Notes: generated by a model from the letters alone, not told the origin. A DNA stretch of 64,000 nt from Candidatus Latescibacterota bacterium (GCA_965217585.1 OZ244561.1:3712001-3776000), one strand, 5' to 3'. Counted from the first letter of the stretch, positions 17,252 to 64,000 are shown. Made by a program: numbers and translations.

Positions 17252-18160
17252 TTAGTGAGCAGATTTGATCTGGCCCCAGCTCACGTCCTCGACAGCGGTC
17301 TCTTCCATCTCCGCCAGCGAAGGCTCCATCTCGGCCAGCACCACGTCGTTGGTCGCGGTGCAGCAGCTTTCCGGCGACATGGTCCAGAAGCCCTGATAGC
17401 TTTCGCGCACACACTCGGTGCAGGCCTCGTCGAAGTCGCCCACGGTCACGGAAGTGTGAATGATCTCGTTTTCCGCGAGATCGAACACCACGGCTTGCTC
17501 TGGGGTGGCCGACGCGTCATTGGGCAACGCGATGATCGGCGTGATGGCTAGCTCGTAATAATAGGTGCTCTCGCCGAACTGCTCGCCGTCGTAGCTCCAG
17601 CCAAAGTCCACCCAGTCGCTGCCATCTACCAGCCACTCGAGCGCGCTCACCGGGCGGTAGAACTGATAGGCACCTTCGACCGGCGGCACAGCCCACTTGT
17701 AGCTAAAGTTGTTGGCCGGCTCGCCTTCTTGGTTATGGTCCTCGGTCGGCGTGTGGTCCGGGTTGACCTCTACTTCCCAGGCGTCGTCCTGCCAGAAGGC
17801 CGAGGGGTTTTCGCGGTCCAAGTTGTGGACATTGTCGAAGACCTCGGTCATGTAGTAGAGCTTGTTGGCGCTGTCGTTCCAGCCGATGAGGTGGCGGATG
17901 TTAATGTCGCTGACATCGATTTCGCCACGGCCCACGGGCTGGATGTCGGCCACTGGCGAATAGAGGCGGTCGTTGCGGATCGTGTACGGATCGATCGGCA
18001 CGACGTCCCAGTCCGACAGGTCGCCGTCCATGGTGGGGACGAGATTGTCGGGGAACTGCACGGCGAAATAGAGCTCGCCGGGAGGCGCGTGGCCAAAGGA
18101 CGTACCGCACAGGCCCATGACCAAGACTGCCGCTAAGACGAATTTGCTCCGCTCTTTCAT
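17252..18160 (-). CDS. Secreted CBM9/DOMON-like sugar-binding protein with C-terminal WGxxK tail
   Basis: AGGAGG RBS and signal peptide. PTMDGDLSDWD and WQDDAWE motifs. Ends TAVEDVSWGQIKSAH. Confidence 0.7.
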   Translation of the reverse strand: MKERSKFVLAAVLVMGLCGTSFGHAPPGELYFAVQFPDNLVPTMDGDLSDWDVVPIDPYTIRNDRLYSPVADIQPVGRGEIDVSDINIRHLIGWNDSANKLYYMTEVFDNVHNLDRENPSAFWQDDAWEVEVNPDHTPTEDHNQEGEPANNFSYKWAVPPVEGAYQFYRPVSALEWLVDGSDWVDFGWSYDGEQFGESTYYYELAITPIIALPNDASATPEQAVVFDLAENEIIHTSVTVGDFDEACTECVRESYQGFWTMSPESCCTATNDVVLAEMEPSLAEMEETAVEDVSWGQIKSAH

Positions 18161-18218
18161 AGCGAAAACCCTCCTTAGGAGAAGTGAGAAATGCTGTATA
18201 AAACAATATGTACAAAGA

Positions 18219-18242
18219 TACAGCGCACTCGGCACGCGCTTA
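18219..18242. promoter_or_regulatory. Conserved motif TAyAGCGCA-N7-CGCGCTTA, copy 1
   Basis: Matches the copy at 20461-20484. Contains the inverted repeat AGCGC-N9-GCGCT. Confidence 0.5.
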
Positions 18243-18276: not shown

Positions 18277-20397
18277 TCAATAAGCGACCGCGAGGATGCC
18301 GGTGCGTTCTTCTTTCTCTTCTAGTTGCAGCCGCCAGATATAGGTGCCCGGGGGTACGAGCTGCCCAGCGGCGTCGCGGCCGTCCCAGCGATGGGCGAAT
18401 TCGCCGCTGCGAGCAGTGATGGACGGCAACTCGACCACGAGTTGGCCGGCGAGGTTGTAGATCGCCAGTCGCACTGGGCGGCTAGCCGTGACTTCGCGCA
18501 GCTTGTAGGCGATTTCCAAGGTCTCGTTCAGCCCGTCGCCATTCGGCGTGAGCGGGTTGGCAGTCACCGCAATATCGACGAGGAGCCGACCGCCGACGGG
18601 TGTATTGATGGCGAGGGCGTCGCCCGAAAAGCGAAAGGTAGCGTTGCCCGGGCGAATTTGCTGCTTGATCTGGTCGGGGTCGTTGCTGTCGAAGACCCAG
18701 CCTGAAAACTCGGTGCCAAAGCGCAAGACCGGCACGACAAAGCTCACTAGGAGCTGTTTGAAACTGTCGCCTTCGCCTTGCAGGCGGGGGAAGGACACCA
18801 CGAAGCGGTCGGCTTGGATATCTGGGACAAAGTCGTCCAAATCGAGTTCGGTGCCGTCGCGTTTGACCGCAGAGACGGCGCGGACTTGGGCGTGGGTGCG
18901 GATCTCTAGCCGGTCGAATCCAGTGTCATCGGCGCTGAATTCCGGCCGGACAACGTATGTAAATTCCGTGGGCGCGAAGGAATCGACGGCAATGGGCCAC
19001 ACCTCGCCGAGGATTTCGCGGGCGGCCGGTGCATTGCCGAATTGGAGTGTGAATGAGCGGATGCGGGGCGCGGTGGTAAAGGTGGAGAACAGGCGAAAGG
19101 CGAGTTGGATGTAGCGGCTCGGCCCGGGCGACAAAAGCGGCGTGCCGTCGCGCCATGCCTCAGCCGGCGCGTCGCTGTCGCGCAAGCCCGCGGCAAAGTC
19201 GTAGGGCGGCGACCAAAAGCTCCAGTTGTCGGTGTCGTACACGGTGGGCAGGCGGCCGGACGGGTCGAGTTTTCCGTAGGCGGCCAAGGTGATGGGTCGA
19301 ATGTCGCCGTTGATATTTTCGTCGAAGTAGAGACTGGGATCGGGGGTGTTGCCGGTGCGGGTGCGGACCTCGATGCGGGTGCCCTCGGGCACGTCGGCGT
19401 CCCAGCGAATTTTGCCCCAGTTGATCGGCTGGCCAAAATCGAGGATCTGGGTGACAAGGACGGTCTCCTCGACAAAGCCCTCGCCGTACACTTCGAATTC
19501 GGCGACCTCCCAGTCGCGCAAAGGGAAGGCTTGAGCCGTGATCCAGCGAATTGACTCGGTGGGGAAGCTCAGTTCGACTACTGGATCGAGATTTTCGCGA
19601 TTGGATTTGATCACAGTGAGCTGGGGATCTTGGTTGCGCACCCAGTTCAGACCCTTGGTGACGCGGCTGACCTTGTCACAGGGGCTGTTGGCAAAGCGCG
19701 CATTATTGTCGCCGACGCGGATTTCATACCAAGCGAGAAAGTTGCTGGCAAAGCTATCTATGCCAAAGTGTTCCAAGGGGGGACGAGGCTCGGTGAGTTC
19801 GTTGATGAGCAATAGGTCGTCCTCTTGACCGAGGCGGGGAAAGAAGCGGATGCGGTTGACGGGCACGGCCGCACGAAAATCTATGACGACCGCTTGTTTC
19901 CAGCCTTCGCCGGTGACCCCGGCGATGATCGTGCCGCCGCTGAAGATGCCTTGGCCTGGGGTGAAGCGGCGAAAGTGAGCGGTGGTCACATCGCCATCGA
20001 ATTGCTTCTTGACTACGGGAGTATGGTTATCGACGGCACCACAGCCATCGGTGGTCTGGGCCTCGCCGCCGATATAGGGCAGGGGAATCTTGATGGCCGA
20101 GGAATTGGGATCGGTCAGGGTCAGATTGACCGATGGGTCGATGAAACGCGGCTGAATGGCGTCGTCGGCAAAGTCGATGAGGGTGTCGGCAGCCACGCCG
20201 TGGGGCGTGACGCCCACGGGCTCGGTGCTCACGAACTGGCCTTCGGCATCAAAGAGCCAGTACTCGCCGGCCCCTTCTTCAGACAGCAGGTTAGGCCAGG
20301 GATTGCCGTCGTCTCCTCCGACGCGAAATTCCCCACGACTGTGCGCTGGCACAATCGACAGGACGAGCAGGAAACACGAAGCGATGATGCGCTGCAT
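18277..20397 (-). CDS. Secreted protein with C-terminal FlgD Ig-like / T9SS-B-like domain
   Basis: Signal peptide, RTRTG and WSFWSPPY motifs, NPLTPNGDGLN...WDGRD...PPGTY, ends AVAY. Confidence 0.8.
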   Translation of the reverse strand: MQRIIASCFLLVLSIVPAHSRGEFRVGGDDGNPWPNLLSEEGAGEYWLFDAEGQFVSTEPVGVTPHGVAADTLIDFADDAIQPRFIDPSVNLTLTDPNSSAIKIPLPYIGGEAQTTDGCGAVDNHTPVVKKQFDGDVTTAHFRRFTPGQGIFSGGTIIAGVTGEGWKQAVVIDFRAAVPVNRIRFFPRLGQEDDLLLINELTEPRPPLEHFGIDSFASNFLAWYEIRVGDNNARFANSPCDKVSRVTKGLNWVRNQDPQLTVIKSNRENLDPVVELSFPTESIRWITAQAFPLRDWEVAEFEVYGEGFVEETVLVTQILDFGQPINWGKIRWDADVPEGTRIEVRTRTGNTPDPSLYFDENINGDIRPITLAAYGKLDPSGRLPTVYDTDNWSFWSPPYDFAAGLRDSDAPAEAWRDGTPLLSPGPSRYIQLAFRLFSTFTTAPRIRSFTLQFGNAPAAREILGEVWPIAVDSFAPTEFTYVVRPEFSADDTGFDRLEIRTHAQVRAVSAVKRDGTELDLDDFVPDIQADRFVVSFPRLQGEGDSFKQLLVSFVVPVLRFGTEFSGWVFDSNDPDQIKQQIRPGNATFRFSGDALAINTPVGGRLLVDIAVTANPLTPNGDGLNETLEIAYKLREVTASRPVRLAIYNLAGQLVVELPSITARSGEFAHRWDGRDAAGQLVPPGTYIWRLQLEEKEERTGILAVAY

Positions 20398-20484: not shown

Positions 20485-20542
20485 ACTTGATTTATGCTCG
20501 CTCTTTGGTTGTTTTATGCAGCAAATCGCACGGAGGATTGCA

Positions 20543-22633
20543 ATGAAAGCGCATTGTGCCGCAGTCGGTCTCGTCTTAGTGCTCTGGCTGCCGAGCGGAA
20601 GTTTGGCTCTCGACGCGGTCTCGATTGGGGAGGGCGGCGACTTGGACTGGCGAGGTGAAGGCGAGGCAATCGTCTCCACCATTGACGCCGAGCACCGCTC
20701 GCCCTTAGACCCCAACAACCTGCTAGTGGGCAACGCGCCCGGCGACTTAGTCGAATTCGCACGCGATGATTTTCCCCACAGCATCCTGCCGCTGCGCATT
20801 GCCGAGGGGGATAACGTGGCCGTCGGCACCATCGAGCGCGGCGGCGACATCGATTCGCCCAATGTCTTCGACTTCAGCGGTACGTTCAAGCCGCTCGACT
20901 TGAAGATGATGTTAAAGGAGTTGCTCTCGGACGACCCGGGCGGCGAGTTGTTGGCCTTTGAGCGCAAGAATCAGAACTCCCTCGGCATCCTAGTCCTGCT
21001 CAATTTAGGGGCGCGCTTCGGGGTGGAGCGGATACGCATCTATCCGCGCAATACGGTCGTATCTTCGCCCTCGACCCCCTTCCAAAACGACTACCTACGC
21101 GCGTATGAGCTGTTTACCAACGACGGCCTAAACCTGACCAGCGAGGACACGCCCATCTGGGATCCGCTGATCGCCGAGACCGACAACCAAGTCGCGGTTA
21201 TCGACGTGCCGCTCGACCCGCCGCGCTACGTCCAGCACCTGCGTTTGCGGGCGACCTCGCCGATAGACTTTGAGATCGACGAGATCGAGATTTTCGGCAA
21301 GGGCTTCCTGTCGCGGGCCCAGTACGTGTCGGACATTTTCGACGCCGGGCAACCAGCCGTGTGGGGCGCGCTGCGCTGGGTGGAAGAGGTGTTGGGCGAT
21401 CCGCGCTTCTCCAGCGCGCAGATCCGCACGCGCACGGGCACGGACACCTCGCCCTTTGTGTACACCCGCCGGTTGCGCGGCAAGCAAGACGCCGATGACA
21501 TCCCTTTTTCGCTGGAAAATCCCGGGGAGGGAATGGGCCTAGCCGAGTACCGGAAATTTCCCCAAAAGGCCGGTCAGACGCCCATTACCGACGCTGCGGG
21601 CCGCGAGTGGATGGCCGGGGCCGTGACTGACGACCTGATCAATTGGAGTCCTTTCAGCACGCCTTATCCGGCGAGCGCAGCTAACGGCCCGGGCCTGCCC
21701 ATTGTCTCGCCCAGTCCGCGCCGCTACATGCAGTTCGAAGTAATTTTTAATAGCAGCGACCTAGAGGCAGCGCGGGTGATCGAGTCGCTGAGCTTCGACT
21801 TGTTGACGCCGCCGTTTGCCGACGCCTTGGTCGGCGAGGTCTTTCCGCGCGAGGTAGAGGTGTCTGAGGAAGTGTCCTTTACCTTTGCCGTGCGCGCCGC
21901 CATGGGCACCGCCGACCTGCGCGGCTTCGACACCATTGAGATTGACACGCCGGCGCGGGTGTCGAGCATCGACGCAGTGCAGATTATTGATGGCGATGGT
22001 GCGGTCGTGGCCGAGCATCAGTTCGCTAGCCTCGACGCGGCTGGCGAGGATTTCGCCATTGCCGAGGTGACCGACGACCACTTTGCCGTGCGCTTCCCCG
22101 TGGTGACCGACGACCAGACGCAGGTGCATGTTCGCTTCCAGACCAACGTGCTGACGTACAGCACCAACTTCACCGCTGCGGCGCGGCTGACGACCGAGCC
22201 GGGTGCCGCCCAGGTCATCGACCCGAGCAATGTGGCCTTTTTGGGCGAAGGGGACGAGGACGCCTTTTCCGGCACCACGGTGCTCAGCCCGTCCGTATTG
22301 GCCGAAGGGCAGCTACTGGGCCAAGTGCAGGCGGCACCCAACCCCTTCACCCCCAATGGCGACGGCATCAACGACGAAGCGGTCATCTACTACAACCTGC
22401 TGGCGCTGAGTACTGCGCGGCCGGTCGAGGTAGCGCTCTACGACTTGAGCGGTCGGCGCGTGCGCGTCCTCTTCGCCGGCGAAGAAGCCAACGGCCGCTA
22501 CACGGACAAAGTGTGGGATGGTCGCGACGACCAAGGCCAAGCCGTTCCCCCGGGCCTGTACGTGGCCCGCGTCTTTGTCGCCGGGGACTCGGGCGACGCC
22601 GAGCAGAGCCGCGTCGTAGCCGTCGTTTACTAA
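20543..22633 (+). CDS. Secreted protein with C-terminal FlgD Ig-like / T9SS-B-like domain (paralog 2)
   Basis: GGAGG RBS and signal peptide. RTRTG, WSPFSTPY, PNPFTPNGDGIND...WDGRD...PPGLY, ends AVVY. Confidence 0.8.
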   Translation: MKAHCAAVGLVLVLWLPSGSLALDAVSIGEGGDLDWRGEGEAIVSTIDAEHRSPLDPNNLLVGNAPGDLVEFARDDFPHSILPLRIAEGDNVAVGTIERGGDIDSPNVFDFSGTFKPLDLKMMLKELLSDDPGGELLAFERKNQNSLGILVLLNLGARFGVERIRIYPRNTVVSSPSTPFQNDYLRAYELFTNDGLNLTSEDTPIWDPLIAETDNQVAVIDVPLDPPRYVQHLRLRATSPIDFEIDEIEIFGKGFLSRAQYVSDIFDAGQPAVWGALRWVEEVLGDPRFSSAQIRTRTGTDTSPFVYTRRLRGKQDADDIPFSLENPGEGMGLAEYRKFPQKAGQTPITDAAGREWMAGAVTDDLINWSPFSTPYPASAANGPGLPIVSPSPRRYMQFEVIFNSSDLEAARVIESLSFDLLTPPFADALVGEVFPREVEVSEEVSFTFAVRAAMGTADLRGFDTIEIDTPARVSSIDAVQIIDGDGAVVAEHQFASLDAAGEDFAIAEVTDDHFAVRFPVVTDDQTQVHVRFQTNVLTYSTNFTAAARLTTEPGAAQVIDPSNVAFLGEGDEDAFSGTTVLSPSVLAEGQLLGQVQAAPNPFTPNGDGINDEAVIYYNLLALSTARPVEVALYDLSGRRVRVLFAGEEANGRYTDKVWDGRDDQGQAVPPGLYVARVFVAGDSGDAEQSRVVAVVY

Positions 22634-22752: not shown

Positions 22753-24966
22753 TCAACCGCCGAAAATTTGTTCGATCTGGGCTTCCATTTCCCGGCGTGC
22801 TACCCTTTCCATGCGATAGGCGCGCTGACTGAGGCTAAAGGCCGCGAATTGGGCGTCCGCGTCGGCTTGGCGTCCGGTGCGTTGGTAGAGGTGCCCGAGG
22901 AATAGATGGGCTTGGTAGTCGCGCGGAGCGATCTGGAGCAAATGCTCAAACAGGGTCACGGCCTCTGCATAGCGCCCTTGGCGGGCGTAGAGCATCCCCA
23001 AGCTCCAATGGGGATGCGCGGCCTTGGGGTCGAGCGCGATGGCGCGGCGCAAAAGTCTTTCGGCCTCGGCTAACTGGCTCGTTTGCCCGAGGGCCATGCC
23101 CGTCCCTTGTTCGAGTTGGATGAGCAAGTCGGCGAGGCGGGTTGGGTACTCGGGAATGTGCGGTTCGCGCTGCACGAGTTGTTCAAACTCGGCGATGGCC
23201 TCGCGATTTTGCCCTTGCTCGGCGTACAGGCGAGCAAGTTGATAGCGCACGAGCGTCGAGTCCGGGTTCAGTTCGAGCGTACGGCTATAAGCTCGGGCTG
23301 CGCGCTGGGGTTGGTCCGTCATTAGAAGGGCGTAGCCGAGGCCGCCGTGCGCCGCTGCCCAGTTGGGACGCGCCGCTGTGATCTCAGAGTACGAGGCCGC
23401 GGCCTCGTCGTAGCGCCGAGCGAGCAACGCGGTGTGGCCGAGGAGAAAGCGCACGTCCGCGTCGTGGGGCCGCGTTTTAAGATAGCGCCGATAGAGGTCG
23501 ATGGCCTTGCCGTAGCGCTTGGCCTCGCCGTGGAGCGCCGCGAGCGCGAGAAGTGGCTCGGCGAAGTCGGGGTCGCGGGCCATGGCGCGGCGGTAGTGGC
23601 GGGCGGCGTGGGCCGGCATGTCCCGTTCCTCGTAGGCGTAGCCGAGATAGTAGTGCTCGTGGGCATCGCCCTCTAGGTCCATCGCGCCCGTGGCCACATT
23701 GCAAAAGACCAAGAGGGCGGCAAAGGCGGCGAGCGCGGGCCAAGGCCGGTGCCACAGGGCGCGCACCCCACAAGCCGCAAACAGCAACAGCACGGGCACG
23801 GCCGGCAGGCGATAGCGCCCGGTGACGAAAAACAGCACCACGGAAAGCGCGTAGCAAGCCACAAAGAGCGCGAGCAAGCGCCCCTCGGGAGGCTCGGGGG
23901 AGCGCAGAAAGGTAAAAAGCCCCATTAGGGCCAGCGGGGCGACCAAGCCGAAGGGAAACGCCAGCCCCTTTTTCCACAGCAGGATCGACAACAGCGAGGA
24001 GTCGTTGCGGGCAAAGTAGAGGTCGCGGTTGCGCGGGATTTCGTCGCCGCGCAGGAACAGATAGCCCTTGTAGGCCAGCAAGCCCAAGAAATTGAGCGGC
24101 TCGGAGGTTATGTACTGCCAAGATTGGGCAAAGAAATAGCGCGACTTGGCCGAAGGCTGCTCAATGCCGGCGCGGATTTCGGGCATTTCCACCAGCTCGG
24201 CCCAAGCTCGTCCCGGGCGGATGCGGGTCGTTTGCGCGTAGTCGGCGTTGTTGCCGATGTAAAAGTTGATGCCCGCGTTGTGCGAGATGAGCACTAGATC
24301 GTCGCCTACCGCCCAGTTGCGATACGCGACCGGCGCGATGACCAGCGCACAGCCCAAGAGCAGGAGAGCCGGTGGGCGGAATCGCCGCTGCCGCCAGTAG
24401 AAATAGCCCAACAGCACGAGCGCGAAGAGCAGCACATTGGCCACGGCGAGCGCGGACAGGCCCAGCAGCACACCGGCTGCCAGCGCGCGCGCCCAACCGC
24501 CCTCGCCGACTACGAGCAACAGAACGAGCAAGTTGAGGCAACAGGCCAGCAGGGTTGGCAGCAACTCGCCGCCAAAATAGATGAGGGGTCCGTACAACGC
24601 CGCGGCAAAACCCGCGCCTAGCCCGACCCCCGCGCCAAAGACCCGGTACCCCAACAGGCAGATGAGGACGCAGACGAGTGCGCCCATGACGGCTTGGATG
24701 AGTCGCGGCAGGTAGAGGTCGTCCCCAGCGACGGCAAAGAGGACGCCGAGCAGCACTGGGTAGAGCGGCGGTTGCCAGAAGGGCGCGGGCCGACCGGCAA
24801 AGGAGACGTCGCTTAGGTAGCGAGCGTCCTCGGCATAGGTGCGGGCATCGACGACGGGTGCGGTGAAAAGCGGGCTGGCGCGTATTTCGTGGAGGTAATA
24901 CAGGCGCGCTGAGAGGGCGAGCGCGAAGACGGCCACCACCCCCATGAACATCCAGCGTCTAGCCAT
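22753..24966 (-). CDS. GT-C fold membrane glycosyltransferase (PMT/ArnT-like) with C-terminal TPRs
   Basis: VVDARTY, PFWQPPLYP, many TM segments, RYRLP, then TPR repeats. Confidence 0.8.
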   Translation of the reverse strand: MARRWMFMGVVAVFALALSARLYYLHEIRASPLFTAPVVDARTYAEDARYLSDVSFAGRPAPFWQPPLYPVLLGVLFAVAGDDLYLPRLIQAVMGALVCVLICLLGYRVFGAGVGLGAGFAAALYGPLIYFGGELLPTLLACCLNLLVLLLVVGEGGWARALAAGVLLGLSALAVANVLLFALVLLGYFYWRQRRFRPPALLLLGCALVIAPVAYRNWAVGDDLVLISHNAGINFYIGNNADYAQTTRIRPGRAWAELVEMPEIRAGIEQPSAKSRYFFAQSWQYITSEPLNFLGLLAYKGYLFLRGDEIPRNRDLYFARNDSSLLSILLWKKGLAFPFGLVAPLALMGLFTFLRSPEPPEGRLLALFVACYALSVVLFFVTGRYRLPAVPVLLLFAACGVRALWHRPWPALAAFAALLVFCNVATGAMDLEGDAHEHYYLGYAYEERDMPAHAARHYRRAMARDPDFAEPLLALAALHGEAKRYGKAIDLYRRYLKTRPHDADVRFLLGHTALLARRYDEAAASYSEITAARPNWAAAHGGLGYALLMTDQPQRAARAYSRTLELNPDSTLVRYQLARLYAEQGQNREAIAEFEQLVQREPHIPEYPTRLADLLIQLEQGTGMALGQTSQLAEAERLLRRAIALDPKAAHPHWSLGMLYARQGRYAEAVTLFEHLLQIAPRDYQAHLFLGHLYQRTGRQADADAQFAAFSLSQRAYRMERVARREMEAQIEQIFGG

Positions 24967-27745: not shown

Positions 27746-27800
27746 GCAATCCCTCCTAAGGTGCGTCAATGATAATCGGCCCCGGGCGTTCCAGCAATAA

Positions 27801-34121: not shown

Positions 34122-34135
34122 AGAGATTCTTTCCT

Positions 34136-36088: not shown

Positions 36089-36104
36089 GTTTTTTTAGGT
36101 GTTG

Positions 36105-52002: not shown

Positions 52003-52016
52003 CGAGGAGCAGCATT

Positions 52017-52766: not shown

Positions 52767-52870
52767 TGTACAGTGCTTTGGTGGTTTCAGGGTGGGAATC
52801 ACAGGGAAGTTACTCTACACGAGGTAGAGGAGAACAACAGAAACACTCACTTTTTGGAGGAGGAATCATC

Positions 52871-53970: not shown

Positions 53971-55269
53971 ATGAGAGAAAAATTCGGGGTACTGCCTTCG
54001 TACTACCGGGAATTCGCCATCGGGATTGCGCTGTCCTTGGGGCTGCACTTGGGGGTTATGGGGCTTTACAGCCTGCTGCAGGAAAAGGTCGAGGAGGTGA
54101 TTCAGCGCATCACCTTTGAAAAGCCCCCGCCGCCCGGTTTCTTTGTAAAACCCCCGACTGCAACCACAAAGGTCCTGGAATTTCGCAAAGTGCCCGTGCC
54201 CCAGGGTCACTTTCTGCGCCAGAGGACGCAGACCACCACGCAGACGAGGGTGGAACAGGTGCAGGCCTTAGCCGCGCTGCGGACCGATGCAGTGGTGGAG
54301 CAACTAGAGGTGGCGGAGGTGACGCCGGCGGTGATGCGGCACCAGGGACGCTTGGGGGTGCGCGGGGATGTCGGGGCCGTGGCCAGAGGTATGGTGGGGC
54401 TGGGCCTTCCCGAACCAGCGCTGCAGGTGGCCGCGGTACAGGGGGTGAAAGAGGCGCGACACCAGGTGGACATGCAGCTAGACATGCTGAGCGTGAAGCA
54501 CCTAGATACCGGCCAGTACCAGGCCATGGTCATCCAAGATCCCAACCAGCGCCGCAAGGTGAAAGGGTTCCTGCACATTGCCCAGGCATACAGCGTGCAC
54601 TATACCCTCACCAACCACACGGATGTGACTTTGCCGCAATTGGACGTGCTCATCAAAACCCTGAAGGAGTACACCGGTATTGAAGCCGATTATGTAGGAT
54701 CTATTCCCCTGGCCGATCCGCAACTTTTGCAGATTCCCTGGTTGCTCCTGACCAAAGTATCCAGTCGCGACATAGGTGATGTAGAACTAGAAAACTTGGG
54801 GCGCTATCTGGCCGGCGGTGGGTTCGTCCTGAGTACCCTTTCCGCCAACAGCGGCTCGAATGCAGTGCTCAAGCGCAAGACGGGTATTTTCGATATTTTG
54901 CGTCGGGCCATGAAAACACAGGCCCTGAACGAGGGAGCGGACTGGCGCTTTGTGGTTCTCGAATCGGACCATCCGATCTACCACTCCTTCTTCGATTTCG
55001 ACACCTCGGTACGCGCCAATCAGATGAGTCAGCATTCGGAAGCCAATCCCCTGCCCAAAGATCTGGGACTCGAGATCGGAGAGCGCCTAGCGGTTTTTCT
55101 CAACTCCGGTCCCCAGGTAGAAGGTGGAAGGGGCAGTCTCGGAGAACAAAGTACCCATCAGGTGAAAGCCGATGCCACGCGGGCATTGCAATTCACGCTC
55201 AACACCATTGTATTCGCGCTCACTCAGGAGGGCTCAGTGACCCAGCAACTCATGACTGGTGTGCGATAA
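53971..55269 (+). CDS. DUF4159-like protein with TonB/TolA-type N-terminal anchor
   Basis: TM containing SLGLH, Pro-rich stretch KPPPP, C-terminal NLGRYLAGGGFV and DHPIYHSFFDF typical of DUF4159. Confidence 0.7.
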   Translation: MREKFGVLPSYYREFAIGIALSLGLHLGVMGLYSLLQEKVEEVIQRITFEKPPPPGFFVKPPTATTKVLEFRKVPVPQGHFLRQRTQTTTQTRVEQVQALAALRTDAVVEQLEVAEVTPAVMRHQGRLGVRGDVGAVARGMVGLGLPEPALQVAAVQGVKEARHQVDMQLDMLSVKHLDTGQYQAMVIQDPNQRRKVKGFLHIAQAYSVHYTLTNHTDVTLPQLDVLIKTLKEYTGIEADYVGSIPLADPQLLQIPWLLLTKVSSRDIGDVELENLGRYLAGGGFVLSTLSANSGSNAVLKRKTGIFDILRRAMKTQALNEGADWRFVVLESDHPIYHSFFDFDTSVRANQMSQHSEANPLPKDLGLEIGERLAVFLNSGPQVEGGRGSLGEQSTHQVKADATRALQFTLNTIVFALTQEGSVTQQLMTGVR

Positions 55270-55325
55270 GAGAGGGAAGGTATAAAAGTCACCTGCTGCG
55301 CAGTTCAGATGCGAATGGCTCAAGG

Positions 55326-57302
55326 ATGGAAAAGGGGATTACACTGCGGGCCCTGATTGCGGGGGTCTTCATGGCTGCTGCCATCGGGGCTGGAGCCGCC
55401 TATGAAAACCTGATGATCTCCGGCTCCACCATGAATTTCGATTACAGCATGGGCGCGGCCATTTTCTTTTTTGCGCTGTTCGTGCTGCTGGTCAACCCGG
55501 CACTGAGGCGCGTCCATCCGTCCTGGTCTTTCAGCCGCAGTGAACTGGCGACCCTGTACATCATGGCCATGGTGGCCTGCGTGCTGCCCACCAATGGCTT
55601 GGTCGGATTGTTGATTCCGGCTATTTCGGGAGGAAGCTATTACGCGACCCCGGAGAACAACTGGCTCGAATACATAATACCCAATATCGAGCCGGGATTA
55701 CTGGTCGTGGATTCGCAGGGCATCAAGGGATTCTACGAAGGCCTGTCCGAAGGCGAATCAATCCCGTGGGGTTTGTGGTTCCAGCCTTTGCTCTACTGGT
55801 CGATGCTGCTAGTGGGTTTCTTCGGCACCGTGATCGCGCTGATGCTTCTGCTACGCCGCCAGTGGGTGGTCAACGAACGCCTGCTCTATCCACTGGTACA
55901 GGTGCCCATCGCCATGATCGGCGAGGAAAGCGGGGTCCGGATTGGAAGCACGCCCTTGTTCAGGCGGTGGATGTTCTGGGGGGGCGTGATGATTCCGGTT
56001 TTGATGTACAGTCTAAAAGCGCTGCACAACTACTACCCGGCCGTCCCGATTGGGTTGCCGACATTCATACACGTGGGTTTTGCCAACGATGCCGTGGTGA
56101 TACCCTTCGGGATCAATTACGCCGGTATTGGTTTCGGTTATTTGCTGACCACCAAGCTGAGTTTTTCGATATGGGTGATAGCCTTGATGACCATAATCGA
56201 AGAAGTCGTTTTGATGCGGATTGGACTGTTCAGCAGCGAGCGCTTGATATACAACACCAGCCCGGCCGTTTATCCGGCCTACCAAGGGGTGGGTGCCTTG
56301 CTGGTGTTTTCCCTTTTTGTGATCTGGATGGCTCGGTCTCATCTGCGCGAGGTGTTCTACGTGGCCTGGAAGGGAAAAAGAAGAGAGAGCGTGGAAGAGT
56401 CCGGTAACAGTGAATATGGGAGGAAAAGGGAGGATGAGATTCTCTCCTATCGTTCCACCTGTGTGTTACTGCTGCTGAGCCTGATGTTGATGACCGGCTG
56501 GCTGGTGGGCGTCGGGTTGAGTTGGTGGGCGGCCATCCTCTTTATCGTGATATTCTTCTTGATGATGCTCGGAATCACCCGCATCGTGGTAGAGGGAGGG
56601 CTGGCCGTAAGCCGGATTCCAATCATTCCGAGCGATGTTGTGGTGGGTGTGGTCGGGAGTGGCAACCTCGGAGCGGCCAACCTCGGGGTCCTAGGGTTGA
56701 CCTTTCCATGGGCGGGCGAGATGCGCACCTCGGTGATGGCGGCTCTGGCACACGGTTTGAAGCTGGTGGAAATTCACGTCAAGAAGCAGCGCCAGCGCCT
56801 GATCCTGGCCGTGGTTCTGGCCATCGGTATATCCATCGGCTGCGCTGCCTTTACCATGCTGCTCCTGGGATATAGCTACGGGGCGATCAACCTGAGCGCG
56901 CACTGGTTTTTCGGCAGCACGGCCGGAGGGCGGGTCTTTGATTTTATCGCCTACCACCTCGCCCAGGACAGCGGGCCCCGGTGGGATAGCCTAAGCTTTG
57001 TCGGAATAGGCGCAGTAATTCAGTTGTTGTTGATGCTGGCCCACCAGCGCCTGACTTGGTGGCCGCTGCACCCGCTGAGTTTTCCGATCGGGGCTATCTG
57101 GTGTACCCATCAGGTGATGGCCAGCATGTTGATCGCCTGGGTGGCAAAGACGACGGCTCTGCACTACGGGGGGGGGCGGCTCTACAATACCACCAAACCA
57201 CTTTTCTTGGGTTTGATTCTCGGACAGTACCTCACTGGAGGACTCTGGCTCATAATCGATGGATTCACGGGTAAACAGGCGAATTACCTGTTCTTCTGGT
57301 GA
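55326..57302 (+). CDS. DUF6785/DUF6784-like multi-pass membrane protein (putative OPT-like transporter)
   Basis: YYATPENNW, LRRQWVVNERLLYPL, WWPLHPL, YGG. Paralog of 34136..36088. Confidence 0.75.
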   Translation: MEKGITLRALIAGVFMAAAIGAGAAYENLMISGSTMNFDYSMGAAIFFFALFVLLVNPALRRVHPSWSFSRSELATLYIMAMVACVLPTNGLVGLLIPAISGGSYYATPENNWLEYIIPNIEPGLLVVDSQGIKGFYEGLSEGESIPWGLWFQPLLYWSMLLVGFFGTVIALMLLLRRQWVVNERLLYPLVQVPIAMIGEESGVRIGSTPLFRRWMFWGGVMIPVLMYSLKALHNYYPAVPIGLPTFIHVGFANDAVVIPFGINYAGIGFGYLLTTKLSFSIWVIALMTIIEEVVLMRIGLFSSERLIYNTSPAVYPAYQGVGALLVFSLFVIWMARSHLREVFYVAWKGKRRESVEESGNSEYGRKREDEILSYRSTCVLLLLSLMLMTGWLVGVGLSWWAAILFIVIFFLMMLGITRIVVEGGLAVSRIPIIPSDVVVGVVGSGNLGAANLGVLGLTFPWAGEMRTSVMAALAHGLKLVEIHVKKQRQRLILAVVLAIGISIGCAAFTMLLLGYSYGAINLSAHWFFGSTAGGRVFDFIAYHLAQDSGPRWDSLSFVGIGAVIQLLLMLAHQRLTWWPLHPLSFPIGAIWCTHQVMASMLIAWVAKTTALHYGGGRLYNTTKPLFLGLILGQYLTGGLWLIIDGFTGKQANYLFFW

Positions 57303-57366
57303 GCCGGGCATGATACGGGGTAGGGAAACTCGCCATTTTCTCGCGCTAGCATAGGAGGATGCCTGT

Positions 57367-58053: not shown

Positions 58054-58066
58054 AAGGAGATATGCG

Positions 58067-58480: not shown

Positions 58481-58516
58481 CTCCTCCAGCAGGAGCTATA
58501 AAAAAAGGACATCACT

Positions 58517-58921: not shown

Positions 58922-58934
58922 AAGGTAGAGCGCA

Positions 58935-60563
58935 ATGAGATTCACCGGAGCGGTCGTGCTGGGATGTGGGCTCGTCGCGGTCACCCTAGGTGCCTGCGGT
59001 GAGCCCGGGGAGCGCATCGTGGTCGAAGTCGGTGGGCGCGGGACCACGGTGAGAGAATTCGATGCCCTAGCGGCCAGACTGCAGGAGGAATACCAGGGCA
59101 GCGAAAGAGACCGGACGGCGTTCCGCAAGCAGGTCCTGGACATGGTGGTGGCGCGCCAGCTCCTGCTTTTAGAGGGGGAGGCGCGCGGCCTGGATCAGGA
59201 TGCAGAGGTGCAGGCCGAACTGGAGCGCTACGAACGGGAATTGTTGATTCAGGCGATGTACGATCGGCAGATCTACCGGGACATCGAGCCGATCCGGGAG
59301 GAAATCGAGGCCCTCTACCGCGAGCGCGGGGCGGGCGAACAAGTGCGGGCGAGTCACATCCTCTGTGCTACCCAGGAGGAAGCCGAAAAGGTGCTGGAGG
59401 AACTCGGGCAGGGCACGGCTTTTGAGGAACTGGCCAGAAAGGTGTCCATTCACCGGATGAGCGCGCCGGGGGGGGGGGACATGGGGTATATGAGAAAAGA
59501 AGAACTCCTGCCGCAGCTGCGGGAAGCGGTGTGGAATGCCCGACCCGGGGAACTCCTGCCGCGGCCTTTCAAGACCAGACTCGGCTATCACGTGGTCAAG
59601 GTGGTGGACCACACAACCCGTTCCCTCGAGGAACTGGAAAAACACCTGATGGGGGAAATCGCGCACAGCAAGCGGGATTCGAGCAAACGGGCCTTTGCGG
59701 CTGCGCTGAGGGCGCGCTACAGATTCCGCTGGCACGGGGCTGTGGCGCAGGGGCTAGTCGCAGGTGAGATCAGTGCGTCCCAGACGCCGGAGCGCCTTAT
59801 CGCGGAGTGGTCGGGGGGCGGTATGACGGTCGAGGACTACATCCAGCGGATCCAGCGCTACAGCGTCCGGCGGACCCTCGAGGATACGGTCGTAGCGCGC
59901 CAGAGGGGTGAGGAGGTGGTGTTAGACGATCTCCTAGTGGCCGAAGCTCGCGGGCAAAACTACGACAAAATTCCGACCATCGTGCACGCTGTGGAGGGGA
60001 AGAAAACCGCACTGCTGGCCGAGAGGCTGTTCGAGATTGAGGTGGGGAGCCGGGCGACGGTCAGTCGGGACTCCCTGAAGAGATTCCACCAGAAGCACCG
60101 GCAGAACTACAGGCACCATCCCGAAATCTACATCCAGGAAATCCTAGTGGACGACCAGGCTCTGGCGGATTCGCTGCGGCATCTCCTCCTAGGTGGGGCC
60201 GATATGGATTCTCTTGCCCGCCAGTACACCCAGCGGCGGTGGGCGCGCGCCAGAGGGGGTCATTTCGGTCCCCTGACAGGTAGCTCGCTGGGGTACCGGC
60301 CGATCTTGTCCAGGGCCCTCAGGGCCGCAATCGGGGTGCTCCAGGGACCGCTGCGGGCCAGTGGCGGGTACTCCCTGTTCCGGGTGACGAAGCGGGAAGA
60401 AGTCGGAGAGAGCCGTTTCGAAGAGGCCGAGGAACGGGTGCGCCAGGACCTGCGGGAACGCAGCATGGATCGTTTTATCCAGGCGCTCAGACAGCGTTAT
60501 GCGGCTCGCATACACATAGATCAGGAGGTACTGGCGGCGACGCTGGGGGGCATGGATGAATGA
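58935..60563 (+). CDS. Parvulin/SurA-PrsA-type peptidyl-prolyl isomerase lipoprotein
   Basis: Lipobox LGAC. VRASHIL, FEELARKVS, GGDMGY, GYHVVKV. Confidence 0.88.
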   Translation: MRFTGAVVLGCGLVAVTLGACGEPGERIVVEVGGRGTTVREFDALAARLQEEYQGSERDRTAFRKQVLDMVVARQLLLLEGEARGLDQDAEVQAELERYERELLIQAMYDRQIYRDIEPIREEIEALYRERGAGEQVRASHILCATQEEAEKVLEELGQGTAFEELARKVSIHRMSAPGGGDMGYMRKEELLPQLREAVWNARPGELLPRPFKTRLGYHVVKVVDHTTRSLEELEKHLMGEIAHSKRDSSKRAFAAALRARYRFRWHGAVAQGLVAGEISASQTPERLIAEWSGGGMTVEDYIQRIQRYSVRRTLEDTVVARQRGEEVVLDDLLVAEARGQNYDKIPTIVHAVEGKKTALLAERLFEIEVGSRATVSRDSLKRFHQKHRQNYRHHPEIYIQEILVDDQALADSLRHLLLGGADMDSLARQYTQRRWARARGGHFGPLTGSSLGYRPILSRALRAAIGVLQGPLRASGGYSLFRVTKREEVGESRFEEAEERVRQDLRERSMDRFIQALRQRYAARIHIDQEVLAATLGGMDE

Positions 60564-60635: not shown

Positions 60636-62840
60636 ATGAAAAAAGCACAAATACGTAAACACAATGGTACCCCGACCTTGTTCATGGACGATCGGCCCAC
60701 CTTCTGCGCCTACTTGTGGGAACGCGGACCGAGTGCAGAGGGATACGAGCAGGAGGCCACGGCTAGAGCCTATGCTCGGGCCGGGATCCACTTTCACGCC
60801 TTTGATGTGGGTACCGTCGGGGTTGCACCGGAGTGGTGCGGGCCGCGGCAAGGCAATGATAGCCACTACGACTTCTCCACCTTGAAAGCCCGCTTTGAGC
60901 GCGTGCTCGAGGCCGATCCGCAGGCCCATTTCCACCTGCGCATCCACCTGAGGATGCAGGAGTGGTGGCTGAAACTTTACCCGGAAGAGCGCGAAATTCC
61001 CTCGGTGGGAGAAGGGCAGTTGCCAGTGACCCAGTCTTTTGCCTCCCAGGTCTGGCACCGGCAGGCCAAGGACTTTCTGCGAGCGTATGTGGAGGCCTTC
61101 AGGGAGGCAGGTCTGGAGGATCGCGTCTTTGCCTACCAAGTGGGTGCGGGCAATACCAGTGAATGGGTAAAAGGCGACCTGTCCATGGACTCGGTTTGCG
61201 GCGATTACAGCGCCCCCATGCGCCGGCATTTCCAGGCCTGGCTGCGCCGCGAGTACGGCGAAGACACCGCAGCTTTGCGGCAAGCCTGGGCCGACCCGGC
61301 AGTCGACTTCGATACGGCCGTGGTGCCCGCTGCCGAAGCTCAACTGCGGACCTTGCACTTCACTTTCCGGGATCCGCGCCGCGAACAGCAAGTGATCGAC
61401 TACTTCCGCTGCTTGGCCGATTTGTGCGGCGACTTGGTGGTGGACTTCTGTCGGACGGTCAAGCAAGCCACCGGAGGCCGGGCCTTGGCGGGGGCGTTTT
61501 TCGGCTACCTGATGGAGCTGGCCTGGAACAAGAGTTTCTTCAGCGCGGGCACCGAGAGCGAGTACTCCACCTACCAGCGCAGCGGCCATCTGGGCCTGCG
61601 CCGACTGTTGCGCTCGGAGTGGGTCGATTTTGTGGTCAGCCCGTACAGCTACGGCTTTCGCGCCGTGGGCGGGGAGGGTGTGGGCATGCCGCCCATCGAC
61701 TCGCTGCGCCACCACGGCAAGCTCTACATCTTCGAAGAAGATACCCGCACCCACCTGGCGGAGGAAACCCACGAATACGGTCGCTCCTATTCGCTCGCGG
61801 ACGCCACGGCCGTTCTGCAGCGCAACTTCGCCCAGATCGCTACCCGTGGACAGGCGGTGTGGTGGCACAGTCAGGTCGATCCCACCCGCGACCCGGCCCT
61901 GCAGCCGCTGCTGGCGCGCTTTCAGGAGCTGGGCGAGTTTGCCCTGCAACTGGATCGCAGTCCCAGCGCCGAGATCGCCGTCGTTGTGGATGACGAGAGC
62001 TTCTTGTACGAATCCGTGCGCAACGACCTGGACTTGCCGCTGATCTTCCAGCAGCGGCTGTGGGGGCTGCCGCGTCTGGGGGCACCCTTTGACACCTATC
62101 TGCTCGAAGATCTGTGCGAGGGCGCCCTGCCGGCGTACAAACTCTATATCTTTCTCAACGCTTTCAGGCTGGACCGGGCGCGGCGCGAGGCCCTAACGCG
62201 CGTGCTGCGGCGCAACGGCCAAGTGGCCGTGTGGCTCTACGCGCCGGGCTACATCGAAGACGAGCCATCCCTGGACCACATGCTGGATCTGACGGGCCTT
62301 TGCTTTGGCAAGGGCGAGCACCCTTGGGGGCCGCTGATGCACATCATCGACTTCGATCACCCGATCACGCAGGACCTATCCCAGGATCTGTTCTGGGGCA
62401 CCAACAGCATTCTGGGGCCGGTTTTCCATCTCGAAGATCCCGATGCGAGGATACTGGGCCAGGTGGTCTACTCGGAGGGACGCTGCCGGCCGGGGCTGGG
62501 GGTCAAGGTCTTCCCGGAGTGGAGTTCTATCTACGTTGCCGCGCCCAATATCCCAGCGCCGGTCCTGCGCGGCCTAGCTCGTTTTGCCGGGGTCCATCTC
62601 TACAGCGAAGCGGGCGATGTCCTCTACGCCACCCCCGAACTGCTGAGCGTGCACACCGTGGCAGGGGGGCCGCGGAGCTTTTCCCTGCCACGGAAGGTGG
62701 AAAGGGTCTACGATCTATTCAACCAGGTCGAACTGGGGCGCGATGTGGAACGCATCGACACCGTGCTGCCACCCCGATCGACCACGCTTTACTACACGGG
62801 GGATGCCGAGATCTTAGCCGGCCTGACCACTGCGGCCTGA
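60636..62840 (+). CDS. GH42-like (beta-galactosidase-like) glycoside hydrolase, cytoplasmic
   Basis: TIM-barrel motifs GNTSEW, DYS...FQAWL..EYG, SPYSY, EEDTRTH, followed by a trimerisation-like domain. No signal peptide. Confidence 0.65.
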   Translation: MKKAQIRKHNGTPTLFMDDRPTFCAYLWERGPSAEGYEQEATARAYARAGIHFHAFDVGTVGVAPEWCGPRQGNDSHYDFSTLKARFERVLEADPQAHFHLRIHLRMQEWWLKLYPEEREIPSVGEGQLPVTQSFASQVWHRQAKDFLRAYVEAFREAGLEDRVFAYQVGAGNTSEWVKGDLSMDSVCGDYSAPMRRHFQAWLRREYGEDTAALRQAWADPAVDFDTAVVPAAEAQLRTLHFTFRDPRREQQVIDYFRCLADLCGDLVVDFCRTVKQATGGRALAGAFFGYLMELAWNKSFFSAGTESEYSTYQRSGHLGLRRLLRSEWVDFVVSPYSYGFRAVGGEGVGMPPIDSLRHHGKLYIFEEDTRTHLAEETHEYGRSYSLADATAVLQRNFAQIATRGQAVWWHSQVDPTRDPALQPLLARFQELGEFALQLDRSPSAEIAVVVDDESFLYESVRNDLDLPLIFQQRLWGLPRLGAPFDTYLLEDLCEGALPAYKLYIFLNAFRLDRARREALTRVLRRNGQVAVWLYAPGYIEDEPSLDHMLDLTGLCFGKGEHPWGPLMHIIDFDHPITQDLSQDLFWGTNSILGPVFHLEDPDARILGQVVYSEGRCRPGLGVKVFPEWSSIYVAAPNIPAPVLRGLARFAGVHLYSEAGDVLYATPELLSVHTVAGGPRSFSLPRKVERVYDLFNQVELGRDVERIDTVLPPRSTTLYYTGDAEILAGLTTAA

Positions 62841-62913
62841 ATGCGCCCGGAGTGCCGACGGATCTGGTAGAGCGGGCACCAAACCGCTCGTATCTCAGAG
62901 GAAGGGCTTTTGC

Positions 62914-64000
62914 ATGGACGGTCCGCGCAACCGTTTCGCCAAGGAGTCAGCTCTTCTGCTCGGTGCCGCTCTGGCCCTGTGTTCGGCCTACGCCGAGCTA
63001 GGGGGGGAATCGCCGGCACCGGCTGCGGTAGCCTCCGTCCATTCCGCACGGATAGGGTACCGCAGCAAGACGGATCAGTGGCGTCAGGTCCTGCGGCGGG
63101 ATCCCTCTGATCGGGAGGCCCACATCCGCCTGGCCGGTGCGCTACTTGAAGAAGGTGCGGGTGAGGCTGCGATTGCGGCCTGCAGGGCCGGCCTAGCCGT
63201 GGATTCCACCCTAGTTCCCCTCTACGGCATCCTCGCCGCTGTGTACGCGCGTGAGGGCCGCTATATGCAGGCCATCGACAACCTGGAAAAAGCGGTGAAA
63301 CTGCAGCCGGACTACGCGGTTGGATACGCCAACCTAGGAGGGATGTACACCAAGCTGGGTCGTTACGAGCAGGCCGAACAAAGCCTCGAACGCGCCCGGG
63401 ACCTCGCTCCGGAGCGGCCTTCGATCTACCGGCGGCTGGGCGAACTCTATTTGAACACGGATCGGCCCCGGGCCGCCGTACGCCAGTTCGAGCAGGCGGC
63501 CCGGTTAAATCCAGATGAAGGGGTTGTATTTTATCTGGCGGGGAAGGCGCACGAAGCCCTCGGCCACAACGAAGAGGCTTGGCAGGCTTATAGAAAAGCA
63601 GCGCGGCTGAACATTTCGCTCGAAGAGGCGCTTTTCCGGGTGGCTACGCTGGGACGGCGGTTGGGGTACAAAGCCGAGGCGGATTCCGCCCTGCAAGCAT
63701 TTCACCGCCTGCGGCAAATCGGCGAGCAGGACAGAGCCCTGGCCATCCAGAAGCACAAACTCAGAACGGCTGTGCTCAATACCCCGGAAAATCCTTCCTA
63801 CCACTACGACCTGGGAGTGTTTTTCGCCGGCCTAGGCTACCATGACGAGGCGGTCAATAAATTCGATCGGGTGCTCCAGATGAGGCCGGAGGATTTCACC
63901 ACCATGACGCGCAAAGGCAATGTCCTTGCTGCTCTGGGAAAAATCGCAGCAGCGTTGGAATTCTATGGCCAGGCCCTGCGCTTGGCACCGGATTTCCCAC
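62914..64000 (+). CDS. TPR repeat protein (3'-partial; missing from ORF track)
   Basis: ATG at 62914 gives MDGPRNRFAKESALLLGAALALCS... then TPRs (LQPDYAVGYANLGGMYTKLGRYEQA). Frame is open to the window end. Confidence 0.85.
   Translation, partial: MDGPRNRFAKESALLLGAALALCSAYAELGGESPAPAAVASVHSARIGYRSKTDQWRQVLRRDPSDREAHIRLAGALLEEGAGEAAIAACRAGLAVDSTLVPLYGILAAVYAREGRYMQAIDNLEKAVKLQPDYAVGYANLGGMYTKLGRYEQAEQSLERARDLAPERPSIYRRLGELYLNTDRPRAAVRQFEQAARLNPDEGVVFYLAGKAHEALGHNEEAWQAYRKAARLNISLEEALFRVATLGRRLGYKAEADSALQAFHRLRQIGEQDRALAIQKHKLRTAVLNTPENPSYHYDLGVFFAGLGYHDEAVNKFDRVLQMRPEDFTTMTRKGNVLAALGKIAAALEFYGQALRLAPDFP

Follow-up and report, generated by a model that had tools for sequence, protein, structure and literature searches.

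What kind of envelope system is encoded twice over within 64,000 nucleotides of a Candidatus Latescibacterota genome? The stretch in question, hereafter the window, is G000:C1:3712001-3776000 (GCA_965217585.1, OZ244561.1), a part of the single 7.32-Mb contig C1; positions below are counted from its first letter unless a contig coordinate is given. Open reading frame (ORF) calls place one gene array at 17252-37646, mainly on the minus strand (cassette A), and another at 40202-64000 on the plus strand (cassette B). The families common to both, recognised with Pfam and all-against-all BLASTP, are paralogues of about 940 aa, a protein resembling carbohydrate-binding module family 9 (CBM9) with a distinctive tail, a DUF6785/DUF6784 permease, a parvulin and tetratricopeptide repeat (TPR) proteins. 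Only cassette B contains ExbB, two ExbD, B07 (a membrane anchor, a Pro-rich linker and DUF4159) and B13, and only cassette A contains A02, A03 and A06, each with a CHU_C/FlgD_ig tail. A first-pass annotation of the window had listed these shared families and extras, and all of them are present at the positions it gave. It had described two copies of one machine; the genome holds 39 loci with at least two of the core families.

The reading favoured here, tentatively and at slightly less than an even chance, is that of a lineage-specific, Ton-like system of Latescibacterota for capture at the cell surface and uptake, operating without TonB-dependent transporters (TBDTs). Its core would be a very large outer-membrane beta-barrel of about 30 strands, with no N-terminal plug and with an acidic loop of the Ca-binding type. 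Beside the barrel would stand lectin-like proteins that reach the surface through the type IX secretion system (T9SS) by virtue of their type-B C-terminal domains, together with a secreted CBM9-like protein carrying a family-wide C-terminal tail and a SurA-like parvulin chaperone. In a “B-type” version these would be joined by an ExbB-ExbD-ExbD motor, a DUF4159 protein anchored in the manner of TonB/TolA, a lipoprotein and a giant TPR protein.

A family of very large predicted barrels

Four of the ~940-aa paralogues lie in the window: A05 (25082-27913, minus strand) in cassette A, with a probable start at MNRRW about 56 codons into the ORF, and B01 (961 aa, 40202-43087), B02 (942 aa, 43091-45919) and B03 (933 aa, 45925-48726), all on the plus strand, in cassette B. 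The last three are 33-36% identical to one another across about 950 aa (BLASTP E 1e-135 to 1e-148), and A05 aligns with B01 at 25% identity over 902 aa (E 6e-45) and with B03 at E 2e-42. B01, B02 and B03 each have a signal peptide and an Asp/Asn-rich insert. This insert is conserved in the family; in B01 it spans approximately residues 565-670, is modelled as disordered, and is the site of the most conserved motifs in an 86-member alignment, DNDDxD and DxDxDG-like runs.

The AlphaFold2 model of B01 built from that alignment (pLDDT 80.5, pTM 0.84) is all-beta, with about 30 long strands running from residue 88 to the C-terminus after the signal peptide and a poorly ordered N-terminal stretch, and it contains no globular N-terminal plug. 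Foldseek comparison of the model with the PDB returned only large outer-membrane barrels, all at low TM-scores, among them SlpA (7zgx, E 1.8e-9), MtrB (6r2q, TMq 0.25), TBDTs, LptD and FimD. None of the four window barrels has a Pfam match, Plug and TonB_dep_Rec included, the barrel is likewise without a match in NCBIfam, and PDB sequence searches with B01 alone and with an 86-barrel profile gave chance matches only. Among 1.84 billion representative proteins the family has 430 matches at E up to 0.001, and every relative that bears a name is called “hypothetical protein”. Because there is no Plug or TonB_dep_Rec match, no N-terminal plug in the model and no structural match beyond generic barrels, these proteins do not appear to be ordinary TBDTs, which have 22 strands as against the approximately 30 of the model. 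They probably constitute a new family located in the outer membrane, as the first-pass annotation had supposed. Elsewhere in the genome one barrel gene (G000:C1:869724-872665, plus strand) is split into ORFs of 701 and 262 aa and may reflect a frameshift or a pseudogene.

The window families are amplified across the genome. All genome-wide counts rest on 25,888 six-frame ORFs of at least 80 aa, obtained by simple calling rather than with a gene finder, and on HMM or phmmer searches based on the window proteins, with matches accepted at E up to 1e-5. The barrel accounts for 80 ORFs, a few of them fragmentary, the permease for 78 (Pfam DUF6785 likewise has 78 matches), the parvulin for 51 and the CBM type for 35; there are 24 ORFs of the 249-aa lipoprotein (B05) type, 22 of the 1086-aa TPR protein (B04 type, TPR1086), 17 of the DUF4159 type and 67 of the A04 type. 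The 252 ORFs that match the A02/A03 models are driven by a common tail.

Co-location of the families exceeds chance. A permease lies within 15 kb of 55 of the 80 barrels (genome fraction that close, 0.25), and a barrel lies within the same distance of 32 of the 35 CBM-type ORFs (0.23) and of 41 of the 51 parvulins. A CHU_C-tailed ORF, usually adjacent, is found within 15 kb of 77 of the 80 barrels (0.46). When matches less than 5 kb apart are merged, 143 clusters are obtained, and the 39 that hold two or more of the four core families occupy 1,008,705 bp, about 14% of the 7.3-Mb genome. The common gene order in these loci is CBM, tailed, tailed, (tailed), barrel (barrel), parvulin, (permease), and a “B-type” order comprises barrels, TPR1086, DUF4159 and lipoprotein, often with ExbB-ExbD-ExbD. 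By analogy, such amplification of a barrel would be typical of nutrient-uptake families. The genome also possesses a classical ExbB-TonB_C locus and about 25 ordinary TBDTs, its 25 Plug matches all lying outside the window.

The Ton-like module and its distribution

The 14 genes of cassette B run in one direction with intergenic gaps of at most 123 bp, and several of them resemble the parts of an energy-coupling machine. B09 (57367-58053, plus strand) is an ExbB (MotA_ExbB, 99.1 bits) and B10 and B11 (58067-58480 and 58517-58921, plus strand) are ExbD proteins (93.3 and 68.8 bits), all above the Pfam cut-off. B07 (53971..55269, plus strand) has a single membrane helix with Ser22 and His26, a Pro/Lys/Arg-rich linker of the form PPPP...KPP...RK.P.P and a C-terminal DUF4159 (49.7 bits); across B07 and 15 homologues the histidine is invariant (16/16) and a serine stands at position -4 in 11 of the 16. 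We take this SxxxH helix with its Pro-rich spacer to resemble the anchor arrangement of TonB and TolA. Upstream of B07, B04 (1086 aa, 48742..52002, plus strand) combines an N-terminal hydrophobic anchor with BamD/YfiO-like TPR stretches (YfiO, 58.4 bits), and B05 (249 aa, 52017..52766, plus strand), with an N-terminal ...LLQYGC, is a probable lipoprotein of no known family, with no Pfam match at E up to 10.

The resemblance to TonB-ExbB-ExbD thus extends to the ExbB and two ExbD in the locus, to the anchor of B07 and to a large barrel as the presumed partner. It differs in that the C-terminus of B07 is DUF4159 and not TonB_C, and that neither a plug nor a TonB box is recognisable in the barrel. 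The four TonB_C matches of the genome all fall outside the window, B07 having DUF4159 in that place. Compared with the PDB, B07 alone found no match and a DUF4159 profile found only the uncharacterised structure 4i66. Six of the eight ExbB paralogues of the genome have a gene for the barrel, TPR1086 or DUF4159 no more than 10 kb away, and a seventh adjoins the classical TonB_C gene. At G000:C1:6005873-6006043 (minus strand) a 463-aa ORF has a weak TonB_C match (25.6 bits) about 1 kb from the DUF4159 gene 6007017-6008276 of a B-type locus; it could be the canonical TonB-like partner of that locus.

The association extends to other genomes, as the first-pass annotation had anticipated. A 9-row barrel alignment searched against a collection of species-representative genomes identified 553 stretches encoding barrel relatives, and the best 69 of these loci come nearly all from metagenome-assembled genomes labelled Latescibacterota, with some from Gemmatimonadota, Handelsmanbacteria and Planctomycetota. 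In these 69 loci the barrel is accompanied by TPR1086 in 61, the B05-type lipoprotein in 60, a CHU_C-tailed protein in 49, the CBM type in 36, a parvulin in 35, ExbB in 34, DUF4159 in 28 and the permease in 8. Approximately 30 genomes share the order DUF4159 (on the minus strand), CBM, barrel, lipoprotein, tailed, barrel, TPR1086, ExbB, ExbD, ExbD, lipoprotein, parvulin; loci L052-L065 show a repeated module of DUF4159, tailed protein, barrel, TPR1086 and lipoprotein.

In a sample of 81 genomes of the phylum, in which every family was searched in the same set, the barrel occurs in 45 and is absent from three families, here termed f2 (0/24), f3 (0/6) and f7 (0/5). The TonB-like DUF4159 protein follows it closely, with matches in 44 of the 45 barrel-positive genomes and in 4 of the 36 barrel-negative ones, the latter weak (E 1e-16 to 1e-23). 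The tail protein is found in 28 genomes, all barrel-positive, and in none of the 36 others. The TonB-like DUF4159 protein is itself amplified in G001 (family f4, at least 21 matches) and G003 (f6, at least 16), which suggests that in these lineages each barrel module has its own transducer. Plug domains number 8-39 per genome in f2, f3 and f7 and 1-30 in barrel-positive genomes, with 3-5 in the near-complete G002, G003 and G009, so that barrel and TBDT numbers are weakly complementary.

A more ambitious claim, possible and held with more doubt than the uptake system itself, is that these parts represent a new class of proton-motive-force-driven outer-membrane machine, a peer of Ton, Tol-Pal and Agl-Glt. 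It would consist of the ~30-strand barrel, a transducer headed by DUF4159, a TPR scaffold and a lipoprotein, would use T9SS-delivered lectins and the CBM9-like protein as exchangeable adaptors, and would largely replace SusCD and TBDTs in Latescibacterota.

The same list of parts invites comparison with surface motility. The Agl-Glt gliding complex of Myxococcus joins a TolQR-family motor to envelope and outer-membrane proteins, and a similar apparatus here would move adhesins along the envelope by means of a TolQR-type motor with TonB-like, TPR and outer-membrane proteins. Cassette B does encode ExbB, two ExbD, a TonB-like anchored protein and large TPR proteins in one co-directional array, and the database name [quoted passage not shown] is attached to some relatives of the tailed proteins. 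The likeness to Agl-Glt and Tol-Pal is nevertheless one of a general part list, comprising a TolQR/ExbBD motor, TonB/TolA-like anchored proteins, TPR proteins, lipoproteins and outer-membrane proteins. The barrels of the cassettes are much larger, an approximately 40-fold amplification sets the system apart, and binding modules and importers lie alongside. With 39 loci and 80 barrels in one genome, ill-suited to a single motility apparatus, and with carbohydrate-binding modules, permeases and catabolic enzymes in the same loci, this explanation is very improbable. Both alternatives named in the first-pass annotation, an Agl-Glt-like machine and an exporter, fit the amplification poorly.

Predicted surface proteins, type IX secretion and the conserved tail

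The three proteins found only in cassette A had been described as FlgD-domain proteins. They are present, and their identity is revised to T9SS type-B-tailed, discoidin-like proteins. A02 (706 aa, exported; 18277..20397, minus strand) and its paralogue A03 (20516..22633, plus strand) end in the same type-B-like C-terminal domain (CHU_C 44.9 and 28.6 bits, FlgD_ig 32.9 and 32 bits) and are 29% identical over 595 aa (BLASTP E 5e-52), and A06 (1003 aa, exported; 27801..30812, minus strand; CHU_C 29.9 bits) has a discoidin-like domain, a similar tail and two segments in common with both. All three exceed the CHU_C cut-off of 27 bits, and A02 reaches only 23.5 bits with NCBIfam TIGR04131, whose cut-off is 35. 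Their tails also resemble the C-terminal domain of PorU. That the N-terminal parts are discoidin-like is a lead only, drawn from sub-threshold matches in A06 (F5_F8_type_C 24.8 bits, F5_F8_type_C_2 25.7 bits) and from F5_F8_type_C on the Atlas clusters nearest A02; an A02-family profile matched nothing in the PDB but the Ig-like tail.

A T9SS core is encoded in the genome, with SprA_N at 80.3 bits, PorU at 627.5 bits (above cut-off) and, adjoining PorU, a PorV-like gene at 153.8 bits (below the cut-off of 250). The single SprA match lies about 30 kb upstream of the window, in a 2153-aa frame (G000:C1:3680827-3682278, minus strand). In the 81-genome sample SprA occurs in 74, barrel-negative families included. 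A search for PorP/SprF (TIGR03519) gave no match in this genome, and the control was likewise silent in all 14 control genomes.

Because the “FlgD-domain” proteins carry type-B tails, a reading as an anchor for surface display arises that has no place in the first-pass annotation, and it is the main rival, one that we consider rather unlikely. In Flavobacterium, type-B cargo of the T9SS is paired with cognate PorP/SprF-like outer-membrane proteins, as in SprB-SprF. The barrel would then be an analogue of PorP/SprF, an anchor or shuttle for type-B-tailed lectins that, through the many cassettes, form a varied adhesive coat for particles or a host, and nothing would traverse it. The parallel lies in CHU_C-type tails on large surface proteins beside an outer-membrane protein gene, in a genome with a T9SS core; the adjacency of tailed ORFs to almost every barrel, the SprA, PorU and PorV-like genes, the lack of a PorP/SprF match, in a search whose control was equally silent, and the enzyme-poor, FG-GAP/ASPIC-rich content of the loci all agree with it. 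Here, however, the partner is a barrel of about 940 aa from an unrelated family, roughly three times as large as PorP/SprF. Cassette B has three barrels and, in a Pfam scan of the window proteins, no CHU_C-tailed gene. The barrel also occurs with Ton-like parts, being coupled in phyly and synteny to a TonB-like protein and ExbBD that an anchor would not need. Finally, since 34 of the 35 genomes in f2, f3 and f7, families without the barrel, possess T9SS, the barrel is no general requirement of this secretion system.

The CBM9-like proteins are A01 (17252..18235, minus strand; tail ...TAVEDVSWGQIKSAH), whose true start is probably MKERSKF about 25 codons within the ORF, and B06 (52763..53848, plus strand; tail ...TAIEATTWGALKETF), both secreted. 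Their CBM9_1 scores (18.7 and 22.3 bits) fall below the Pfam cut-off of 23.4, and BLASTP does not pair them at 1e-3. A shared A01/B06 profile (A7) nevertheless matches solved CBM9 modules over about 85 residues (1i82, E 3.3e-9; 7nwn, E 7.8e-5), and both proteins end in TAVE..SWG.IK. The consensus tail of the family, T-A-V-E-x-x-S-W-G-R-I/V-K-x-x-F, is kept in 34 of 35 members from this genome and in 35 of 35 from other genomes. Genome-wide, 92 ORFs have W[GA]x[IVLM]K within their last 25 residues as against 14.7 expected.

A tail of this kind could be a sorting signal. In that case the barrel, driven by ExbBD and DUF4159, would be an exporter or assembly machine that places the tail-bearing CBM9-like protein, and perhaps the lipoprotein as well, on the surface, in the manner of Slam, two-partner or TBDT-linked secretion. 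The 92 tail-motif ORFs, to be set beside 80 barrels, the conservation of the tail and its confinement to barrel-positive genomes (28/28) point that way, as do the SurA-like chaperone and BamD-like TPR stretches encoded alongside. The tail protein is, however, undetected at E 1e-8 in 17 of the 45 barrel-positive genomes, including 11 of the 13 of family f9. A 40-fold amplification is unusual among secretion systems, and the neighbouring importers and cytoplasmic enzymes suit uptake better, all of which makes export improbable. Co-folding of barrel A05 (residues 80-943) with the last 58 residues of A01 scored 0.00 in both runs, a result obtained without controls and uninformative about binding.

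Permeases, locus content and the case for uptake

The permeases of the cassettes, A09 (34136..36088, minus strand; DUF6785 410.5 bits, DUF6784 101.9 bits) and B08 (55326..57302, plus strand), are 36% identical (BLASTP E 8e-120), and at E up to 10 the only Pfam families matched are DUF6785 and DUF6784, with no match to OPT (PF03169). The model of B08 (pLDDT 83.2, pTM 0.87) has the fold of the oligopeptide transporter (OPT)/YSL group: Foldseek aligns it over its full length with barley HvYS1 (7wsr/7wst, E 1.5e-9, TM 0.64/0.69), the next match standing at E 0.024. Since HvYS1 is the sole significant match, we take DUF6785/DUF6784 to be an OPT-fold secondary transporter. In a related archaeal Atlas cluster, 11% of members bear OPT. 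With OPT/YSL (TC 2.A.67) the permease shares the fold of B08; it differs in sequence (12% identity to HvYS1), in its 78 copies here and in being catalogued as DUF6785/DUF6784.

An inner-membrane importer, as the first-pass annotation had it, is therefore plausible to judge from the modelled fold, and its place as an integral component of the machine is not sustained. DUF6785 occurs in 67 of the 81 genomes, and the permease is a frequent neighbour of the barrel, separable from it and no fixed part. In f2 and f3 genomes (G007-G080, same class) 21-68 first-look DUF6785 candidates were seen in each, and the barrel, the tail protein and the TonB-like DUF4159 protein were not found in them. Because DUF6785 is expanded in these barrel-negative families, the expansion of the OPT-fold permease is older or independent.

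In the favoured capture-and-uptake scheme, glycan-bearing substrates would be captured by surface lectins and the CBM9-like protein, oligomers would pass the barrel with energy that ExbBD, acting in cis or in trans, would transmit by way of the DUF4159 transducer, and uptake would be completed by nearby OPT-fold DUF6785 permeases and cytoplasmic enzymes, GH42-like in this locus. Outer-membrane location, binding, the direction of transport and energy coupling are what we infer in drawing it. If the mechanism holds, the system would replace SusCD or TBDT loci.

A reading modelled on the polysaccharide-utilisation locus (PUL) is suggested by amplified loci, modules of carbohydrate-binding type, importers and enzymes encoded nearby, and Ton-like parts dedicated to the system. 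As with SusC/SusD PULs, there are dozens of paralogous loci in which a large barrel has secreted or surface partners of carbohydrate-binding type, with importers of the inner membrane and cytoplasmic enzymes close by, and a link to a Ton-type motor exists. The loci are PUL-like and still no PULs, because SusC, SusD, Plug and TonB_C features were looked for and are absent: none of the 26 window proteins matches Plug or TonB_dep_Rec, the B01 model has no N-terminal plug, no window protein has a Pfam match to the SusD family, and the CBM9-like tail protein is unrelated to SusD. Unlike PULs, moreover, the loci appear to have few carbohydrate-active enzymes, no hybrid two-component (HTCS) or extracytoplasmic-function (ECF) regulators are seen in the window, and the binding proteins of the cassettes bear T9SS type-B tails.

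Several observations weigh against uptake. The loci are poor in enzymes: outside the repeated families the 39 contain 85 ORFs of at least 200 aa, in which the commonest Pfam families are FG-GAP_3 (18), UnbV_ASPIC (16), PhyH (6), Amidohydro_2 (3) and the enolase superfamily (2), and no glycoside hydrolase is among the 25 commonest of 91 families. The glycan import proposed in the first-pass annotation is not demonstrated by such a content. No sensor or regulator family occurs among the Pfam matches, limited to the best 25 families per protein, of the 26 window proteins of 17252-64000, those of A04, A07 and B14 being filled by TPR families. Where T9SS cargo is anchored, too, a type-B-tailed gene stands beside one for an outer-membrane protein. 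Of the 39 loci, only about 6 encode ExbBD themselves. All 13 genomes of family f9 possess the barrel and lack DUF6785, and 35 of the 36 barrel-negative genomes possess DUF6785. The phyletic patterns, finally, amount to a few evolutionary events or clades, because related genomes are not independent. Examples of the FG-GAP/UnbV_ASPIC genes in the loci are found at G000:C1 834444-837828 and 855294-857108.

Taken further, these points would dissolve the system altogether, leaving T9SS cargo, outer-membrane proteins, OPT-like permeases and Ton motors that merely gather in variable regions of large genomes. The clear separability of permease and barrel, the rarity of ExbBD and the differing content of the loci are in keeping with such a view. 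It is improbable, about as much so as export, in the face of a gene order conserved in roughly 30 of 69 loci across genomes, of the coupling of the barrel to DUF4159 (44/45) and to the tail protein (28/28), and of the co-directional, closely spaced genes of cassette B. The gene families, their folds, amplification, co-location and co-occurrence are established here, whichever function they serve.

The remaining cassette genes supply chaperones, TPR proteins and variable neighbours. Both parvulins are SurA/PpiD-like with two peptidyl-prolyl isomerase domains: A08 (32478..34628, minus strand; Rotamase_2 91.5 bits, Rotamase 61.1 bits) and the lipoprotein B12 (58935..60563, plus strand; Rotamase 77.7 bits, Rotamase_2 65.6 bits; N-terminal part ...LGAC). 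About 490 bases in the 5' part of the A08 ORF are shared with the 3' end of A09. The real start probably lies downstream, near 34100, since the B12 alignment begins at A08 residue 178. A04 (22753..24966, minus strand) joins a polytopic N-terminal part to C-terminal TPR, with matches to many TPR families. It is possibly a GT-C (PMT_2-like) glycosyltransferase, to judge from PMT_2 scores of 23.9-25.3 bits, just under the cut-off of 26.1, which are absent in the one paralogue tried. A07 (31026..32474, minus strand; TPR families at E as low as 1e-65) and B14 (62914..63999, plus strand), which runs past the end of the window, are further TPR proteins.

B13 (60636..62840, plus strand), a variable neighbour, is a putative cytoplasmic GH42-like enzyme. 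It has no Pfam or PDB match itself, and the assignment comes from 120 listed homologues, 58-73% identical, of which some bear PF02449 (GH42) and several are named beta-galactosidase. Another variable neighbour, A10 (36099..37646, plus strand), is a GDSL/SGNH-type hydrolase (Lipase_GDSL_2, 57.7 bits). Between the cassettes lie M1 (37643-38737, minus strand), a pyridoxal phosphate (PLP)-dependent enzyme (PALP, 143.7 bits), and M2 (389 aa, 38704-39873, minus strand), with a weak GH42-like stretch of 74 residues (GH42 beta-galactosidase 4uni, E 0.009). The genes before 17252 are unrelated to the cassettes. Two LVIVD-repeat proteins (3-2902, plus strand) are followed by redoxin, short-chain dehydrogenase/reductase (SDR), class-III aminotransferase and GATase genes, and at 11000-16965 (minus strand) two long overlapping ORFs encode a type III restriction-type helicase (ResIII/DEAD, 1136 aa) and an N6_N4 DNA methylase (1101 aa), probably a restriction or defence module immediately upstream of cassette A.

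RNA-library contigs from three studies, labelled sponge metagenome or by codes, align to cassette B. In two of the four runs, X15 and X16, 14 of 24 and 17 of 26 aligned pieces are at least 99% identical, and each has one contig of 1.8-1.9 kb across B05-B06. X17 represents a relative at 90-95% identity, with contigs covering 48449-53848 (B04-B06) and 54411-59775 (B07-B12). These are assembled contigs with possible DNA carry-over, in which uncovered stretches carry no meaning, and they therefore allow neither a ranking of genes by depth nor an inference of operons.

Latescibacterota, of which to our knowledge there is no cultured model, occur widely in sediments, waters and sponges. No described system matched the one outlined here, which bears out its first-pass designation as undescribed, and no description of it was found in print, supplementary gene tables aside. 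The accessible parts of PMC4454575 and PMC12993501 make no mention of such a system, and the metabolic reconstruction of Latescibacterota in the former, as far as those parts extend, takes the outer membrane to carry unspecific porins and ordinary TBDTs.

New here are the extent of the system across the genome, a Ton-like module phyletically coupled to the barrel, a conserved tail and the separability of permease and barrel. If the favoured reading of a Ton-like capture-and-uptake system is true, the barrels would constitute a new family of outer-membrane transporters or anchors, DUF4159 would gain a role in a new kind of TonB-like energy transducer, DUF6785/DUF6784 would gain a context, and PUL-like amplification would have arisen independently of SusCD. 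An unannotated system filling about 14% of 7.3 Mb would be of central importance for the way in which these bacteria interact with their environment.

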